A DNA stretch of 64,000 nucleotides from Escherichia virus TH22. The notes under the pieces are model-generated. The model was given only the letters and a program-made list of their open reading frames with translations, did not search any database and was not told the origin of the DNA. How positions within the stretch are numbered: the stretch's first letter is position 1; the number at the start of each line of letters is the position of its first letter. The stretch lies in sequence record MT446396.1, one strand, 5' to 3'. A program made the translations under genes and the position numbers. Below, piece by piece: positions 10,650 to 58,543 of the stretch.

Positions 10650-11772
10650 TTTTAACCTTTGGTGGCTCTTCAACTTCAATAGGCTTACCATTGGTAAACA
10701 TATAGAGGTTTGTAATTGATGTATTGTTACTCACTTCATGAATAACTTCGTCTACGTAAAAATCATATTTGAATTGGTTCTTCGGGTCATAGAAATTTAT
10801 CTTATCACCCGGGGTTAATTCAAAGTTCCCGTATGTTTTGCAATGCGCGTAACCATCATATTGAGACATGGTTATTAATCGTTGCGCTTCTTCGAAACCG
10901 TTTCGGTATGTATAATCCGAATAGCCGCCTGAACGAGATACCAGAATGCTGTTTTGTCCTTCCCCAAAAGTTATTCTGGTTGCGTTCTTGTCAAGGAATG
11001 AATGTGCATACACGGTTGCGTTTTCGTATGGTTTTCTTGTGTGTTGGTTCGCCTTTGTTAACCATTCAAAATCGAAGGCCAATGGAGTCTCGAGGTTTTG
11101 TACAAACTGGCCAACCAATCGAGGTTCACCCACCACGAAATTAATTGGCTCTTGTGATGTTAACCATTCATAATCCTGGATACTTATTCCATCAATATCT
11201 TCCCATACAAAAACAAATTTATCAGTTTCTACTGCCAAACCAACTTCCCTTATGAATTCCATATATCGGTTCATCGAATCACACCATGGAACGTTAGGAG
11301 CATAAACGTTTATGCCGTTTATTGGTGGAGAAAGCAACGGTCTATCCTGATAAATTACCCCGGTCATTTCGACTAATGTTTCTTGTACACTCGGGTAAAA
11401 CATACGACTAAATTTCAGGTCTTCAATTTCGTGAATAGGAGCCAGCTGAATTGTAATTATATTATCGCCTTTTGAATCCACAGAAACTGCAAAGTGTTTG
11501 CTTCCATATATTCTGGATTGGGTTCGGTCTGAGTTGGCATTCTTAACGGAGACTTGTATAATTTGTTCACCGTTCATTTTTGTATGTAAGTTCTTTGTGT
11601 CGTAGAATTGCAATAGACCTTCGTTTCTTCCGTAAAGGGAATCACGCATGGTCATGGTTGTAAATGTTGCAGCCAGTTCTACAAAACGGTGTTCGAGCCA
11701 GGCATCATAATCTTCGTAAAGGCGTATGCTGATATTAGGAAAGCCTTCACGCTGCATAGATTTAGCTGTCAT
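10603..11772 (-). CDS. 27: baseplate hub subunit
   Basis: 389 aa (T4 gp27 391 aa); [27 protein letters not shown] matches the T4 gp27 N-terminus as recalled. Confidence 0.85.
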
Positions 11773-13588: not shown

Positions 13589-13613
13589 TGCTTTAATTTT
13601 ATGGCTGTATAAT
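13587..13613 (+). promoter_or_regulatory. MotA-dependent middle promoter (MotA box aaTGCTTtA, 12 nt, TATAAT) for uvsY
   Basis: TGCTT at 13589-13593 and TATAAT at 13608-13613 with canonical spacing; followed by conserved GGTTCTAGACCC. Confidence 0.65.
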
Positions 13614-13641
13614 GGTTCTAGACCCTTACATTGGATACATT

Positions 13642-18903: not shown

Positions 18904-18932
18904 TTTTGCTTCAAATAAAAATGCGGTATAAT
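18904..18932 (+). promoter_or_regulatory. MotA-dependent middle promoter (tttTGCTTcA, 13 nt, TATAAT) upstream of rnlB
   Basis: TGCTT at 18907-18911 and TATAAT at 18927-18932; followed by conserved GGTTCTAGACCC. Confidence 0.6.
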
Positions 18933-19029
18933 GGTTCTAGACCCTTTGCAACTATTAATTCCTTTCAGAGAAAGAAAGTATAGTGGGTCTAATTTATAAT
19001 GATATTTATAACATCAAAAGTGAGAGATT

Positions 19030-28449: not shown

Positions 28450-28941
28450 TTATTCCCACCAGTCAATTGCGAACGTTGCTTCGAACGTTTCAATTTCGTT
28501 GTTACTGTCCCAATCCATCTGGACTTCCCCAACGTTGGTTGGCCACATGCCGGTAATAACAACTTCTTTCGTAACGGTCTTACCATCACGATGGAACTGA
28601 CGAACAGTAGCGGTTTTCTTATAATCAGCAGGAGCTGCACCGGTGATTTCGTTAGTCATACCGTGACACAGGTTTTGCCAATCAACAATTGCTTGACGAA
28701 CTTTATGAGCATCGTCGTTATAAATCGTAATAGTCCAGTCATCAAATGTACGGTCGCCCGCAACGTTGATTTTACGGTTCATGTAACCGACAGGAACTTT
28801 TTCTACAATGCCTGCTGGCATCGGGGCTGCTTTACAATGGAAAGCAAAGTTTTTACCCAGGAATGGGATTTCGACTTCGAACAGGTTAGGGCGAGCAAAG
28901 TCGCCGGATTCGAAAGCGCGTGTGATATCGGTCAACTCCAT
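28450..28941 (-). CDS. 19: tail tube protein
   Basis: 163 aa from MELTDITRAFESGDFARPNLFEVEIPFLG, matching the T4 gp19 N-terminus as recalled; GAGGA Shine-Dalgarno; the ORF-track start at 28992 was rejected. Confidence 0.9.
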   Translation of the reverse strand: MELTDITRAFESGDFARPNLFEVEIPFLGKNFAFHCKAAPMPAGIVEKVPVGYMNRKINVAGDRTFDDWTITIYNDDAHKVRQAIVDWQNLCHGMTNEITGAAPADYKKTATVRQFHRDGKTVTKEVVITGMWPTNVGEVQMDWDSNNEIETFEATFAIDWWE

Positions 28942-29072
28942 TAAGGAATCCTCTTTATAGACACAGGTCGCGCGAACGCGTCCCTGATGCATGTATTTAT
29001 ACTAGGTAATATGATTCATCATCTCAAGATAATGGCTTCCCAGAATCAACCACAGGAGCCCGTAGAACCGAT

Positions 29073-29110
29073 TATGCTTTTATTTATATCACTGTATAAT
29101 GGTTCTACGG
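29073..29110 (+). promoter_or_regulatory. orphan MotA-box middle-promoter-like element (TGCTT, 13 nt, TATAAT, GGTTCTACGG) pointing antisense into gene 18
   Basis: Same architecture as the uvsY and rnlB middle promoters; no plus-strand gene downstream. Confidence 0.4.
29081..29088 (-). promoter_or_regulatory. late promoter TATAAATA (minus strand) for gene 19
   Basis: Plus-strand TATTTATA in the 18-19 intergenic region. Confidence 0.55.
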
Positions 29111-29145
29111 TTTCTAACTGATTAATTCATTCTAAGCGATGATAA

Positions 29146-31125
29146 TTATTGTGGCCCAATCAGCTCATCAAAATCAGCACCAGTGCTAGTGGCTACGAAG
29201 TTAAGAGTGATGTAGTTGATGCTGCGCGCAGGTTTAAAATAAATGCTAGCAACAAACTCATTTCGGTCTATGACCGACGGGGTGTTGTTAGTAGTATCAC
29301 AAACTACACGACCTTCATAAATGCCACCAAGTGCACGAATACCATCCAAGTATTGAGAAGTTTCCATACGGAATGATGCACGAGTGAAGTTATCGTTAAG
29401 CTCAAACAGTTTATATTTGGATGCATCACCGATATTTTTCTTCAGCATATTCGTAAGACGACGAACGTTAATATGGTCCATCGGAGATGGAACTTTAGTT
29501 GCAGTCTTATCACCATACAGAACAAAACCATCACCACCTGCGAAACCAACAACCGGGTTGATAGCTTCTTGATACATGCGGTCACGTTGGGTCTGACGTG
29601 GTTCAACAGCCAATTTCAGAACGTTCAGAATCTGACCGCGGTTATAACCAGCCGGAGACATCCAAGGCTGAGAAACATCATCAGTACGAGCACACAGACC
29701 AGCCATATCAGCTGCCAGAGGAACCCAACGGTTAACGTCATTATATTTATCATACTGATATTTATAGTTGCCATCAATCGCTGCATAAGTCGTGCTGATA
29801 TTCATGTTATCAGTATCAAATGCGCCAGCACCTGTACGCCAGTCAATCAGGTTATCCACTGCACGGGTCAGAGGAACGTTAACCAACAGACCTTTCGGCG
29901 GGGAAATAAATGCCAGACAATCCTGACGTTCGTCAGCAATAGAAACCACGTGTTTCTGAACAGTGGAAGCGGTTGCATCACCTTCACCAGCTACTGCACC
30001 AGCGATAAGCAGGTTAATATGCAGTGCTTCACGGTCAGCAAACAGGTCCCAACCTTGCATCAAATCACCAGCGGTAATCTTATCGTTTGCAGAAATACCA
30101 CCTGACAGATTGATGATACCACTGAAGCCTGCAGGCCAGTTGCGAGATGTTGCATAGATGTAGTTGGAAGTACCTTTTGCAAAGTAGTCATCCAAGTAAA
30201 TGTTATTACCGTAAACATCTTTTTCGCCCTGCTTGGTAGACAAAACAACGTTTTCGACGATTGCACCATCGCGGCGAACGATAATTGCATATTGGTTTTC
30301 AGACTGTGGGCCATAGTTAAACACGGCACGAGCCACAGAAGCACGCGTTCCGCCGCCCGGGAAAATATTCAGATTTGCAGCTGCGCCTTTTTCAAATTCA
30401 GCTTTAGATACGATTTCAACTTCCAGAGTCGAACCGATTTCACCTGGATAAAGAGCAACAACACCTGGCATTGCATATTTTGCTAATGATGCCTGGAATT
30501 CCAGAGAAGTAATTGCTTCTTCACTATTTTCTGCTTCAGTCAACAGAATGCCAGAATCGGTAACAATTTTCCCAACGGTGATGGTACCAGATACGCCAGA
30601 AGAAGTGGTTGTAACTTCTGCAGTCCATGCACTACCTAAATTAGGATACTGGTTAATAGTTTTGGCAAATGCAATAATCTTATCGGTAGGAATAAAGATT
30701 GCCTGAATTTTACCATCAACGTCGACCTTGGTCACACGGCCAGCCGGTTCAACAACAGTCTGGTTGTGTTTAACCTGAATAACATCACCGACAGCATAGT
30801 TTGTACCAGCAGTTACGATGGTAGTTTCAATATTGCCAGCAATAGGGGATGCGTTTTTAGCTTCGTCACGGTTAACAACACGTACAGTACGGAGGTCGTT
30901 ACCATATTGCAGGAAGTTCATCCCACTCATAAAGTAATCTGCTGTTTCATTATTCGGACCACCAAACAAATCAACAAGTTCAACTTCGTTTGTAATTTGA
31001 GTTACCTGGAAAGCTGGGCCCCACTGGAATTTACCAACCAGCGCCGCACGACCCGTCGCGTTACGAACAACAGTGCTTTGTACCGTTGTTTCTTTGAGCT
31101 CAATGCCCGGGGATAATAAAGCCAT
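29146..31125 (-). CDS. 18: tail sheath protein
   Basis: 659 aa, same length as T4 gp18; synteny; GAGGA Shine-Dalgarno. Confidence 0.95.
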   Translation of the reverse strand: MALLSPGIELKETTVQSTVVRNATGRAALVGKFQWGPAFQVTQITNEVELVDLFGGPNNETADYFMSGMNFLQYGNDLRTVRVVNRDEAKNASPIAGNIETTIVTAGTNYAVGDVIQVKHNQTVVEPAGRVTKVDVDGKIQAIFIPTDKIIAFAKTINQYPNLGSAWTAEVTTTSSGVSGTITVGKIVTDSGILLTEAENSEEAITSLEFQASLAKYAMPGVVALYPGEIGSTLEVEIVSKAEFEKGAAANLNIFPGGGTRASVARAVFNYGPQSENQYAIIVRRDGAIVENVVLSTKQGEKDVYGNNIYLDDYFAKGTSNYIYATSRNWPAGFSGIINLSGGISANDKITAGDLMQGWDLFADREALHINLLIAGAVAGEGDATASTVQKHVVSIADERQDCLAFISPPKGLLVNVPLTRAVDNLIDWRTGAGAFDTDNMNISTTYAAIDGNYKYQYDKYNDVNRWVPLAADMAGLCARTDDVSQPWMSPAGYNRGQILNVLKLAVEPRQTQRDRMYQEAINPVVGFAGGDGFVLYGDKTATKVPSPMDHINVRRLTNMLKKNIGDASKYKLFELNDNFTRASFRMETSQYLDGIRALGGIYEGRVVCDTTNNTPSVIDRNEFVASIYFKPARSINYITLNFVATSTGADFDELIGPQ

Positions 31126-53200: not shown

Positions 53201-54024
53201 GTATTTTTACATTTATCAATGAATCTGCAGATAAACCAGGTCCGAAACCCAGTAAATCAGAACAACAATGGGTTGAGATAGGGGTTGAATTTTATACAGC
53301 AAAAGAAAAAGGAATGACCTCGAAGAAGTTTGCTGAAGAGAAAGGAATCAACTATTCGACCTTTACCAAAAGCATGTCGAGGTATCATTCAAGAATTCAG
53401 ACTGCTTATAAAGTATCCAAGCTCAAAAAGAAACCTGCTGGTAAACTTACGAAGGCTGAACGCCAGCTGATAATGGTGAATAGCTTTAGGAAGAGCATAA
53501 GAGATAAGATTGCTAACGAAGGCGCTGCAAGCAACACCAAATCTGCCAGATGGTTCGCAGAGACAATTAAGAAATCAGTTCGCGGCCACGTAACGGCTAA
53601 ACCTCAACCAGGTAAACTTTATGCTTATATCTATGATGCAAAGCATAAGGATACTCTTCCATACTGGGACAAATATCCGTTAATCATTTATCTTGGTCTA
53701 GGTAAGCATAATTTGATGTACGGTTTGAACTTGCACTATATTCCACCGAAGGCACGTCAAGAGTTCCTTGAGGAACTTCTTAAGCAATATGCTAATACTC
53801 CTACGATTACAAACAAGACTCATCTGAAGATTGATTGGTCAAAGGTGAAGGGATTTAAAGGGGCTGACCAGATGATTAAAGCATATATACCCGGCAATAT
53901 AAAAGGTACTATCACTGAAATCAAGCCCAGCGACTGGGCAAATGTGGTATTACTCCCCCTTCAGCAGTTTTTTTCAAAAGGCAAAAGATATTCTTCCCAG
54001 AAAGTATGGAGAAATTCACTTTGA
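53197..54024 (+). CDS. 2: DNA end protector protein
   Basis: 275 aa from [16 protein letters not shown] (T4 gp2 about 274 aa); ATGA overlap with gene 4. Confidence 0.8.
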
Positions 54025-54680
54025 ATTATCAGTTTATATATTCATCGTTAATTGAAAGGGCCTGTAACAGGGTCCTGATTTCATATAAAGAATCTCATCA
54101 CATCATTCCGAAATGTATGGGTGGTTCAAATGACCCAGATAATCTGGTCGATTTGACTCCTGAGGAACATTATGTAGCCCATCAACTATTGGTTAAAATA
54201 TATCCTACAAATCCAGGTTTAAGTTTTGCTGCTACATCCATGTGCCAGTCAAGCAAGTATTTGAAACGCAATAATAAATTATTTGGTTGGTTAAGACGTA
54301 GACACGCTGACAATATTTCTAAAAGTCAAACCGGTAAAGTTTACTTTAATAATGGTGTCAAATCGATAAAACTATTTCCATGGGAAAATATTCCGGATGG
54401 GTTTGTCAAAGGAAGACATTACAGTCCAACCAAGGGTACAAAACATTCTCGCAATAATGGTCATTTTAAAAATAAAGAGATTCAGGATGAATTGAGAAAG
54501 CGCCGGTGGGAAAAAGATAGGCAAGAAATGTGTAAAAACTTCGGAGTTGATACCGTCGAGCAAGCTCGAGAGTTGGTCTTAGCATATAAAAAGGAATTGC
54601 ATCCTCGATACTGGGTAAAGCCAATGTTGGAACGTTATCCGTTTATGACTAAGCTAAGACTTAACACATTAATAAAATAA
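54006..54680 (+). CDS. HNH homing endonuclease (Mob-like), second copy, inserted between genes 2 and 3
   Basis: 224 aa; [10 protein letters not shown]...[11 protein letters not shown], paralogous to ORF 52066; 5' end overlaps the gene 2 stop by 19 nt. Confidence 0.8.
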
Positions 54681-54715
54681 TCTATTATCGGTCAGTGTTA
54701 TTGGTAAGGACAAAA

Positions 54716-54754
54716 GGTCTAGAACCATTATAACACTGATTGTTTTAAAGCAAA
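54716..54754 (-). promoter_or_regulatory. orphan MotA-box middle-promoter-like element on the minus strand (TGCTTTA, 13 nt, TATAAT, GGTTCTAGACC), pointing antisense into the HNH gene
   Basis: Reverse complement of 54716-54754 reads tttGCTTTAaaacaatcagtgtTATAATGGTTCTAGACC. Confidence 0.4.
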
Positions 54755-57712: not shown

Positions 57713-57748
57713 TGTACATGATGGGATAACTGCAGTATAATTATCCCA
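57712..57748 (+). promoter_or_regulatory. early promoter inside inverted repeat TGGGATAA...TTATCCCA (promoter stem-loop cassette)
   Basis: -35 ATGTAC, 18 nt, -10 TATAAT at 57736-57741; 8-bp inverted repeat brackets the -10. Confidence 0.6.
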
Positions 57749-57781
57749 TCAACTACTGGAGACAACATGAAAACTTATCAA
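57715..57781 (+). repeat. 67-bp perfect direct repeat, copy A (promoter + RBS + first 5 codons)
   Basis: Identical to 58013-58079. Confidence 0.85.
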
Positions 57782-58009: not shown

Positions 58010-58048
58010 GTATACATGATGGGATAACTGCAGTATAATTATCCCATC
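58010..58048 (+). promoter_or_regulatory. early promoter inside inverted repeat TGGGATAA...TTATCCCA (promoter stem-loop cassette)
   Basis: -35 GTATAC, 18 nt, -10 TATAAT at 58034-58039. Confidence 0.6.
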
Positions 58049-58079
58049 AACTACTGGAGACAACATGAAAACTTATCAA
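58013..58079 (+). repeat. 67-bp perfect direct repeat, copy B
   Basis: Identical to 57715-57781. Confidence 0.85.
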
Positions 58080-58357: not shown

Positions 58358-58543
58358 ATGAAACGTTGCGAATTAATTAGAAATGTTACTGCCCTTGTTG
58401 CTGTTACCGCTTTTGGTTTTAGCATGTTTGCTGGCTTTATGTTGAATATGCTTTCAACTTCTGAGAATATAATCTCTTTAGTAGTTGCATTCTTAATTGG
58501 TTCAATCTCTTTCGTTATGGATAAAATCTCTAAAGGTGAATAA
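58358..58543 (+). CDS. small hydrophobic protein (61 aa, probably two transmembrane helices)
   Basis: Hydrophobic stretches VTALVAVTAFGFSMFAGFML and IISLVVAFLIGSISFV. Confidence 0.45.
   Translation: MKRCELIRNVTALVAVTAFGFSMFAGFMLNMLSTSENIISLVVAFLIGSISFVMDKISKGE

Follow-up and report, generated by a model that had tools for sequence, protein, structure and literature searches.

The spacer between the tail sheath gene 18 and the tail tube gene 19 of Escherichia virus TH22 carries what appears to be a selected, compact regulatory node that would work on both strands. On the plus strand, 36 bp would serve as a MotA/AsiA-dependent middle promoter with a start at about A29107 and no gene to express. 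On the minus, late strand, the same DNA would place a late promoter (TATAAATA) in the loop of a 15-bp stem that closes the gene 18 message, a local version of the T4-type 18-19 unit of hairpin plus late promoter. Judging from its sequence, the plus-strand element probably fires in vivo as a functional promoter. Comparison of related genomes indicates that the element is conserved in three genera and absent from T4. The single most likely specific role to emerge from our analysis is that of a cis-acting primer or R-loop RNA for replication initiation, a role that we put forward tentatively.

The 18/19 element and its parts

The window, the whole 64,000-nucleotide stretch of DNA analysed, is by its sequence a Gaprivervirus (VR7/SP18-like, among the T4-like Tevenvirinae). 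In the 18/19 region it matches Escherichia phages TH55 and UPEC07 at 100% identity and VR20, VR25, SP18 and VR7 at 92-99%. Comparison with the VR7 annotation makes the minus strand that of late genes 5 to 23 and the plus strand the early/middle strand with uvsY and rnlB. The genes motA and asiA are annotated in the congener VR7, neither of them lying inside the window. From the ATG of gene 19 to the stop of gene 18, the spacer measures the 204 bp given in a first-pass annotation, which had also placed TGCTT at 29075 and the two arms of an inverted repeat at 29060 and 29096. All of these positions are correct, with TGCTT at 29075-29079, TATAAT at 29095-29100 and GGTTCTACGG at 29101-29110 (Table 1).

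The plus-strand sequence has the parts of a T4 middle promoter in the usual order. Nine of the ten positions of its MotA box TTATGCTTTT fit the consensus (a/t)(a/t)(a/t)TGCTTtA, for which a spacing of 12+/-1 bp between box and -10 has been published (PMC2988021). The spacer of 13 bp, the upper limit of that range, is found here and at the rnlB and gene 2/3 copies described below, with 12 bp at uvsY. The earlier count of 13 nt holds when it is made from the end of the 10-nt MotA box; from TGCTT to TATAAT the distance is 15 nt. The mapped T4 PuvsY start at 115371 is the A of TATAATGAATCTA, which is homologous to A29107, and this homology is the ground for predicting the transcription start there. 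The segment from -10 to +1, GTATAATGGTTCTAcGG, is nearly identical to that of PuvsY in Gaprivervirus and Dhakavirus.

Several counts support its identity as a promoter. The pattern TGCTT-N12-16-TATAAT occurs seven times in the window against 0.34 expected, and TATAATGGTTCTA occurs there exactly four times, at 13608 on the plus strand (uvsY), 18927 on the plus strand (rnlB), 29095 on the plus strand (18/19) and 54720 on the minus strand (gene 2/3). Beyond the promoter itself, the four copies have no sequence in common. The first-pass annotation had likened the element to the uvsY and rnlB promoters, both of which indeed carry TATAATGGTTCTA exactly, and had overlooked the fourth copy at 54720. 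In the complete VR7 genome, which we put together from five annotated pieces for promoter counts, 24 of the 26 matches to [CT]GCTT-N13-15-TATAAT lie on the early strand, the 18/19 orthologue among them, a bias which implies that chance matches to the pattern are rare. Downstream of the box, TATAATGG(T/G)TCT is present in 7 of these 26 sites, which makes it a discriminator and start region typical of the genus.

A promoter matrix built from 23 VR7 early-strand sites, with the 18/19 orthologue excluded, ranked the 18/19 site fourth among roughly 128,000 positions on both strands of the window, a rank that is partly circular in that the uvsY and rnlB orthologues of the training set also carry GGTTCTA. 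Only uvsY, rnlB and the 54720 copy scored higher, and the gene 30 promoter was tied with the 18/19 site. The earlier classification as a MotA-type middle promoter of the uvsY/rnlB sub-family thus finds support in the common TATAATGGTTCTA, the matrix rank and the presence of motA and asiA in the genus. A scan of a viral collection with the 14-mer GTATAATGGTTCTA returned at least 120 contigs, mostly unrelated, and was uninformative because a 14-mer is too short for that collection.

The minus strand of the same DNA carries late promoters. TATAAATA is present 22 times in the window against 4.9 expected, and its copy at PL-a, which agrees with the T4 late-promoter sequence from -13 to -6, is invariant across 13 members of the genus. 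An overlap with a minus-strand late promoter had been proposed at first pass, and an exact TATAAATA does lie at 29081-29088 inside the middle-promoter spacer, its eighth base (29081) falling within the MotA box. In phage VR26, PL-a is the sole late promoter upstream of an HNH gene.

Both promoters are enclosed by an inverted repeat of 10+5 bp, and no other inverted repeat was found in 28900-29200. Perfect inverted repeats of at least 10 nt (gap 3-40) number eight in the 64-kb window, the 18/19 repeat included, against 2.8+/-1.7 in dinucleotide shuffles, and two of the eight coincide with the two gene-less promoters of the window. The suggestion that the repeat could fold in a transcript is borne out by a stable predicted fold on either strand, with z about -5 to -6. 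The hairpin is predicted at -18.5 kcal/mol on the late strand (z = -4.9) and at -23.2 kcal/mol on the plus strand (z = -6.1), a stability reached by none of 200 shuffles. Its loop is 20 nt long and is followed by GGGCUCCUGUGG on the late strand and by just UUUCU on the plus strand; a terminator scan made no call of an intrinsic terminator at this hairpin. Covariation is evidence neither way, since the 12 sequences in which the arms occur show no difference in them.

Table 1. Coordinates of the 18/19 element, its sister promoters and the flanking genes in the window
Feature	Position	Strand	Remarks
Gene 19 (tail tube)	28450..28941	-	context; ATG 28939-28941
Late promoter PL-b, TATAAATA	28994..29001	-	53 nt 5' of the gene 19 ATG; kept in 12 of 13 aligned spacers
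Inverted repeat, left arm	29060..29075	.	CCGTAGAACC 29060-29069, bulged G 29070, ATTAT 29071-29075
MotA box TTATGCTTTT	29072..29081	+	consensus wwwTGCTTtA; centred near -30; TGCTT invariant in 13 genus members
Late promoter PL-a, TATAAATA	29081..29088	-	exact; back to back with the middle promoter; in hairpin loop
13-bp promoter spacer	29082..29094	+	29082-29088 is the complement of part of the late promoter
-10 hexamer TATAAT	29095..29100	+	perfect sigma-70 match; invariant in 13 genus members
Inverted repeat, right arm	29096..29110	.	ATAAT 29096-29100 and GGTTCTACGG; holds most of the -10 and the start site
Discriminator and start GGTTCTA	29101..29107	+	predicted start A29107
Gene 18 (tail sheath)	29146..31125	-	stop 29146-29148; 3' end read into by the gene-less promoter
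Sister promoter 5' of uvsY	13589..13620	+	TGCTT-N14-TATAATGGTTCTAGACC; orthologue of T4 PuvsY/oriF
Sister promoter 5' of rnlB	18907..18939	+	shares TATAATGGTTCTA
Second gene-less copy	54692..54752	-	TGCTT 54752-54748, TATAAT 54732-54727, GGTTCTAGACC

The element is one of several promoter copies without a gene. The copies at uvsY and rnlB, by contrast, have genes to serve and lack an inverted repeat. The copy at 54720 on the minus strand has its own perfect 10-nt inverted repeat (54692-54701 and 54730-54739), which includes the -10. It lies between the HNH gene mob (54006..54680, plus strand) and gene 3 and is oriented antisense into mob as well as gene 2; most relatives lack mob, yet keep this promoter in an 85-bp gene 2-3 spacer. 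A third gene-less copy is found in the srd-modA spacer of VR7, where the core is about 85% identical to that of 18/19 and the inverted repeat is formed with the -10 of the srd promoter. These gene 2/3 and srd/modA copies are the only VR7 pattern matches on the 'wrong' strand, and they are oriented opposite to all annotated T4 origin primers. The description of the 18/19 motif as an orphan therefore stands insofar as the site is gene-less and fails insofar as it implies uniqueness.

Conservation within Gaprivervirus and in other genera

The element is present in 33 phage records, every one of them a Gaprivervirus. Searching for the motif in relatives, which had been named at first pass as a check, showed the core kept at the same position across 13 aligned Gaprivervirus spacers, and positional counterparts came to light beyond the genus, in Dhakavirus and Marfavirus. 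In the alignment, the core TATGCTTTTATTTATAnCAnnGTATAATGGnTCTA varies only at three spacer positions outside TATAAATA and at one position after the -10; the sequence immediately 3' of the predicted start is variable. The motif is absent from the close lineage L008-L013.

The 13 spacers fall into three mosaic contexts. A distance of 38 nt separates the core from the gene 18 stop in the window type. In the VR7 type, gene 18 and the element are parted by 19.1, a gene of 201 aa that has a hairpin and a late promoter of its own; its protein is probably HNH-like, to go by the C-terminal motif and its relatives, and a Pfam scan of it gave no match. VR26 has unrelated sequence on both flanks, homology being confined to the 36-bp core, with a separate G+C hairpin 3' of gene 18 and a different HNH-like gene between core and gene 19. 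An 11-nt deletion in VR26 takes out one arm and leaves no hairpin (z = +1.2), and both promoters are intact. Thus, the promoters, not the hairpin, are the constant feature, and on this sequence comparison the hairpin is dispensable for the conservation of the promoters.

Outside Gaprivervirus, the spacer was compared across 79 T4-like loci collected via gp19. A hairpin 3' of gene 18 is present in almost every T4-like phage, usually beside a TATAAATA. In Dhakavirus (the JS98 group) and Marfavirus (the group of Klebsiella phage F48), the early strand has a promoter-like site with a perfect TATAAT and a GCT about 15-17 nt upstream of it, the rest of the spacer having diverged. This site is 122-134 nt from the gene 19 start, the position it has in the window, and by chance a shuffled spacer would contain a motif of this kind in about 0.5% of cases. 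The Dhakavirus box variant, GCTG, is the variant of that genus's own uvsY promoter at an equal distance of 15 nt. In both Dhakavirus and Gaprivervirus the two HNH types take opposite sides of the element, one on its gene 18 side and the other on its gene 19 side, and a Marfavirus record annotates the homologous hairpin as the gene 18 terminator. The T4 18-19 spacer has no antisense promoter motif and instead has two units of hairpin plus TATAAATA; among the published T4 middle promoters none is listed between P1 and PrnlB, and no T4 origin maps to 18/19.

Two readings that tie the promoter to mobile genes were set aside. That it is cargo or relic of a mobile HNH cassette is contradicted by the 18/19 element in genomes most of which are without 19.1, and by the gene 2/3 copy in genomes that lack mob. 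The insertion of HNH genes on either side in two genera marks the element as a fixed resident landmark rather than cargo. That it is the relic promoter of a once-inserted early-strand gene is likewise unsupported, as the insertions in the 79 loci all encode late-strand HNH-like proteins.

These comparisons also bear on whether a plus-strand promoter exists at all. The sequence might be kept for late-strand functions, namely the late promoter, the hairpin or an RNA motif in the gene 18 3' region, the MotA-type match being a by-product. The half of the spacer proximal to gene 19 is also nearly invariant, which makes conservation alone weakly discriminating, and the complement of the -10, CAUUAUAC, always lies within the late-strand hairpin in the three genera; a hairpin at this place is, as noted above, common to almost all T4-like phages. 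However, neither TGCTT nor TATAAT is part of TATAAATA, and both are invariant even in the hairpin-less VR26, the distance from box to -10 is about 15 nt in all three genera, and the box variant tracks the PuvsY of its own genus. The 13-mer in common with bona fide promoters, the fourth rank in the window and the near confinement of pattern matches to the early strand, with false positives correspondingly rare, further weigh against a by-product, and we regard this explanation as the least probable of those considered, indeed as quite improbable.

Alternatively, the element may be a terminator-promoter module of the PeSL/PmSL type and a recombination joint. The hairpin would end transcripts, the promoter would restart them, and the short conserved sequence would serve mainly for cassette exchange; the promoter may then fire and its transcript be functionless. 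PmSLs, made up of a Mot box, a -10 and a stem-loop, are known from T4-like phages beside insertions and deletions (PMC4122927). Consistent with such a module, the element has two kinds of HNH gene around it in two genera, VR26 is homologous only over the core, perfect inverted repeats fall on both gene-less promoters of the window, the Marfavirus hairpin is annotated as a terminator, and divergence at the gene 18 3' end is unusually high, as is expected near a recombination joint. In a PeSL, however, the stem-loop precedes the promoter, and a Shine-Dalgarno sequence and a start codon follow, whereas here the arms enclose the promoter and no gene comes after. PeSLs are, moreover, rare in structural-gene regions (PMC4122927). 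A perfect -10 and a box kept in three genera despite diverged flanks point to selection on promoter function, and the module explanation is in our judgement unlikely.

Possible roles of the probable gene-less promoter

A coding or structured antisense RNA is an unlikely product of the promoter. The absence of a plus-strand gene downstream, with the promoter pointing antisense into gene 18, was correctly recognized at first pass: the plus strand there holds just spurious ORFs antisense to gene 18, none of them with a ribosome-binding site, and the 44-aa ORF annotated in UPEC07 (28987..29121, plus strand) begins upstream of the promoter. A search of Rfam gave no family match. Synonymous constraint is likewise absent from the 3' end of gene 18, where synonymous divergence in the last 30 codons (0.355 against 0.174 overall) is the highest of the gene. 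The transcribed sequence differs completely between the three contexts, being the gene 18 3' end in the first, the HNH gene in VR7 and spacer plus hairpin in VR26. As the promoter is invariant, no ORF follows and the transcribed sequence is unconserved, selection appears to act on initiation at the site, not on the RNA sequence. Antisense regulation is not the best-supported use of the putative transcript. The literature that we consulted offered nothing usable on anti-late RNA or on T4 start-site maps covering late regions.

Under the origin reading, the transcript would act in cis as an RNA-DNA hybrid, either R-loop or primer, as at T4 oriG. We favour an oriG-like role because the promoter is on the early strand, is antisense to a late gene and has a -10 to +1 region of the PuvsY/oriF type. 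Two features of an R-loop origin can be read directly from the DNA, a middle-mode promoter and its position on the early strand antisense to a late gene. The region from +1 to +50 has 66% A+T and a duplex dG of -60.3 kcal/mol, the 17th percentile of window 50-mers, a value that does not discriminate since the VR7 orthologue of the oriG promoter is at the 69th. The origin role is a possibility well below even chances because the unwinding test is powerless, T4 has no origin there and the other gene-less copies are reversed. The reversal of the gene 2/3 and srd/modA copies also means that an origin role is not an obvious common explanation for all three. The proposed chain as a whole, from initiation through to a role in replication, is possible and put forward with reserve.

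A more specific form of this proposal is unlikely in our estimate, namely that Gaprivervirus, Dhakavirus and Marfavirus carry an 18/19 replication origin absent from T4, at which the primer-template junction could load the gp45 sliding clamp in addition to its part in priming DNA replication. The polarity of that junction is reportedly the one needed for T4 late-promoter activation in the nick-enhancer work of Geiduschek. If the proposal is true, the most abundant virion genes would have their expression coupled directly to origin firing, the overlap of middle and late promoter would be a built-in middle-to-late switch, and a gene-less middle promoter would lay RNA on the non-transcribed strand of late genes.

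A functional promoter could also act by interference or by antisense control. RNA polymerase bound at the site or firing from it in the middle period would occlude the late promoter and would also make RNA antisense to the gene 18 3' end (or to 19.1 in genomes that have it), so that premature late-strand transcripts would be silenced or destabilised until middle promoters shut off. In favour of such a use, the two promoters are back to back on the same DNA with TATAAATA within the middle-promoter spacer, each of the two gene-less copies of the window is directed into a gene from immediately 3' of it, and the transcribed stretch is precisely where HNH genes insert. Antisense RNA needs no sequence conservation and so fits the divergent gene 18 3' end; T4 homing endonucleases are silent until late, and invading elements create antisense transcripts (PMC2988022). 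Nonetheless, gene 18 is a late gene opposite to early transcription, which leaves no obvious premature transcript to silence, most element-bearing genomes have no adjoining HNH gene, and in VR26 the GC hairpin between promoter and gene 18 could stop the transcript beforehand. We consider this use of the promoter doubtful.

The site may mark an unrecognised replication origin, given that P34i, the only well-studied gene-less middle promoter of T4, proved to be a replication origin. The 18/19, 2/3 and srd/modA sites make up a small, defined set of conserved gene-less middle promoters, and their natural variants, with and without the hairpin and with three downstream sequences, are test material for replication priming as well as for antisense control or interference. 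The element also indicates that one stretch of 26 bp can hold a middle promoter on one strand and a late promoter on the other, and the 18-19 spacer emerges as a hot spot for the insertion of two kinds of HNH gene about a fixed landmark.

Comparison with known systems

The closest likeness is to T4 P34i, a MotA-dependent middle promoter, and oriG (ori34). In minimal form, T4 oriF and oriG each comprise a middle promoter and an unwinding element for which heterologous sequence can be substituted; DNA synthesis is primed by the origin transcript, which is present as a persistent R-loop (PMC3016281). The same review leaves open what enables a T4 promoter to give rise to an origin R-loop (PMC3016281). 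According to the T4 record, the primer RNAs of oriG and oriE are both early-strand, the first running against gene 34 and the second complementary to the transcript of gene 5. In VR7, too, the P34i orthologue lies antisense within gene 34. P34i and the 18/19 element are both early-strand middle promoters in a late structural region, gene-less and antisense to a late gene, and in neither does the downstream sequence need to be conserved. P34i, however, is inside a coding sequence, whereas the 18/19 element is intergenic, shares DNA with a late promoter and has the arms of an inverted repeat around it. Moreover, oriG is a known origin and the 18/19 element a candidate one, T4 having neither promoter nor origin at 18/19.

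With T4 PuvsY/oriF, the element has in common the box, the spacing, the -10 and the homologous start A; PuvsY expresses uvsY, and the 18/19 promoter has no downstream ORF. T4 oriE is similar in producing an early-strand RNA complementary to the transcript of a late structural gene, but its promoter is early rather than middle, and it encodes RepEA and RepEB.

PeSL/PmSL elements (Arbiol 2010; Comeau 2014, PMC4122927) also combine a stem-loop with a Mot-box promoter in intergenic DNA. Like the 18/19 element, they adjoin insertion/deletion polymorphisms (here HNH genes) and have a short conserved core with unrelated flanks. Unlike them, the 18/19 element has arms that enclose the promoter, no Shine-Dalgarno sequence or start codon thereafter, an orientation against its neighbours and a place in the structural core instead of a hyperplastic region. 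The 18-19 spacer of T4 itself has two hairpins, each followed immediately by TATAAATA, and in the window, too, this spacer contains a pair of late promoters and a pair of hairpins. The T4 units have TATAAATA after the stem, whereas in the window it is in the loop of a stem that is not rich in G+C, and the other strand additionally bears a middle promoter. Nothing about the 18/19 element is mechanistically unprecedented. As far as its sequence indicates, it combines known kinds, a P34i-like gene-less antisense promoter of the MotA type fused with a late promoter in a hairpin.

Further predicted gene-less promoter copies

A second predicted gene-less middle promoter lies in the spacer before gene 3, between the plus-strand genes at 54006..54680 and 54766 (Table), and is oriented so that its transcript would run antisense into both mob, an HNH gene, and gene 2. 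Its -10 element contributes to a perfect inverted repeat of 10 nt (54692/54730); the hairpin read in the late direction has a folding energy of -22.6 kcal/mol. The mob gene itself occurs in only 8 of the 36 matching phage records, the gene 2-3 spacer being 85 bp in the remainder, and relatives without mob still keep the promoter. The third copy, found in phage VR7, shares about 85% identity with the 18/19 core, the gene-less predicted MotA-type middle promoter of the gene 18-19 spacer. This copy and the -10 region of srd's divergent promoter make up a 15-nt inverted repeat. Additionally, two identical copies of a perfect inverted repeat, spaced about 300 bp, lie close to another promoter of the middle type, at 58449 (+).

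Table. Gene-less promoter copies and other features
Feature	Position	Strand	Sequence or remark
G+C-rich hairpin, gene 19 leader	28964-28986	-	CAGGGACGCGTTCGCGCGACCTG
44-aa ORF	28987-29121	+	hypothetical protein in UPEC07, pEC-M719-6WT.2 and P8 annotations
Second block common to several genera	29005-29020	+	late-strand reading (A/T)AATTATATTACC; also L027, L029 and L035 spacers of relatives
HNH (MobB-like) endonuclease gene, 224 aa	54006-54680	+	insertion between genes 2 and 3
Second gene-less middle promoter, predicted	54692-54752	-	TGCTT-N15-TATAATGGTTCTAGACC
Perfect inverted repeat, 13-nt gap, two identical copies	57719-57751 and 58017-58049		TGATGGGATA
Third gene-less copy, VR7 srd-modA spacer	L205, about 11620-11700	non-early	CGCTTTTATTTTTACCGTGTATAATGGTTCTAAGG

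The gene 18-19 spacer and its insertions

The 44-aa ORF runs across the promoter/hairpin element, begins upstream of the predicted transcription start, and is probably an annotation artefact. The G+C-rich hairpin is flanked on one side by the second late promoter (28994-29001) and on the other by the ribosome-binding site of gene 19, with variation inside it in a few relatives (TH15, TH54, P479 and PSD2001). The second shared block is immediately upstream of the late promoter of gene 19, and its opposite strand reads as a -10-like GGTAATATAAT, which is TATGAT in the window.

Two related HNH-like genes insert in this spacer, making it an insertion hot spot (relatives' loci L002, 2238-2843, VR7 19.1; L006, 1814-2497 region, VR26; L012, L014 and L015). 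Type A adjoins gene 18 and type B adjoins gene 19, in Gaprivervirus and Dhakavirus alike, and both types have the C-terminal motif AYQLDHKVS...NLE..WE.NR.K; the VR7 19.1 protein was not recognised by Pfam. Across five Gaprivervirus genomes, the last 30 codons of gene 18 (29146-29235) show the highest synonymous divergence within the gene (0.355 versus 0.174 overall), which fits recombination or co-conversion tracts beside the HNH insertion site.

uvsY promoters across relatives

The segment TATAATGG(T/G)(T/C)C(T/C)A is kept in all uvsY promoters examined (L225-L232), whereas their MotA box drifts: Gaprivervirus has TGCTT, Dhakavirus has TGCTG, and the 175-kb group has either TGCTC or AGCTT. 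Judged from these sequences, the activator site of this origin-associated promoter, the orthologue of T4 PuvsY/oriF, is less conserved than the segment from -10 to +1.
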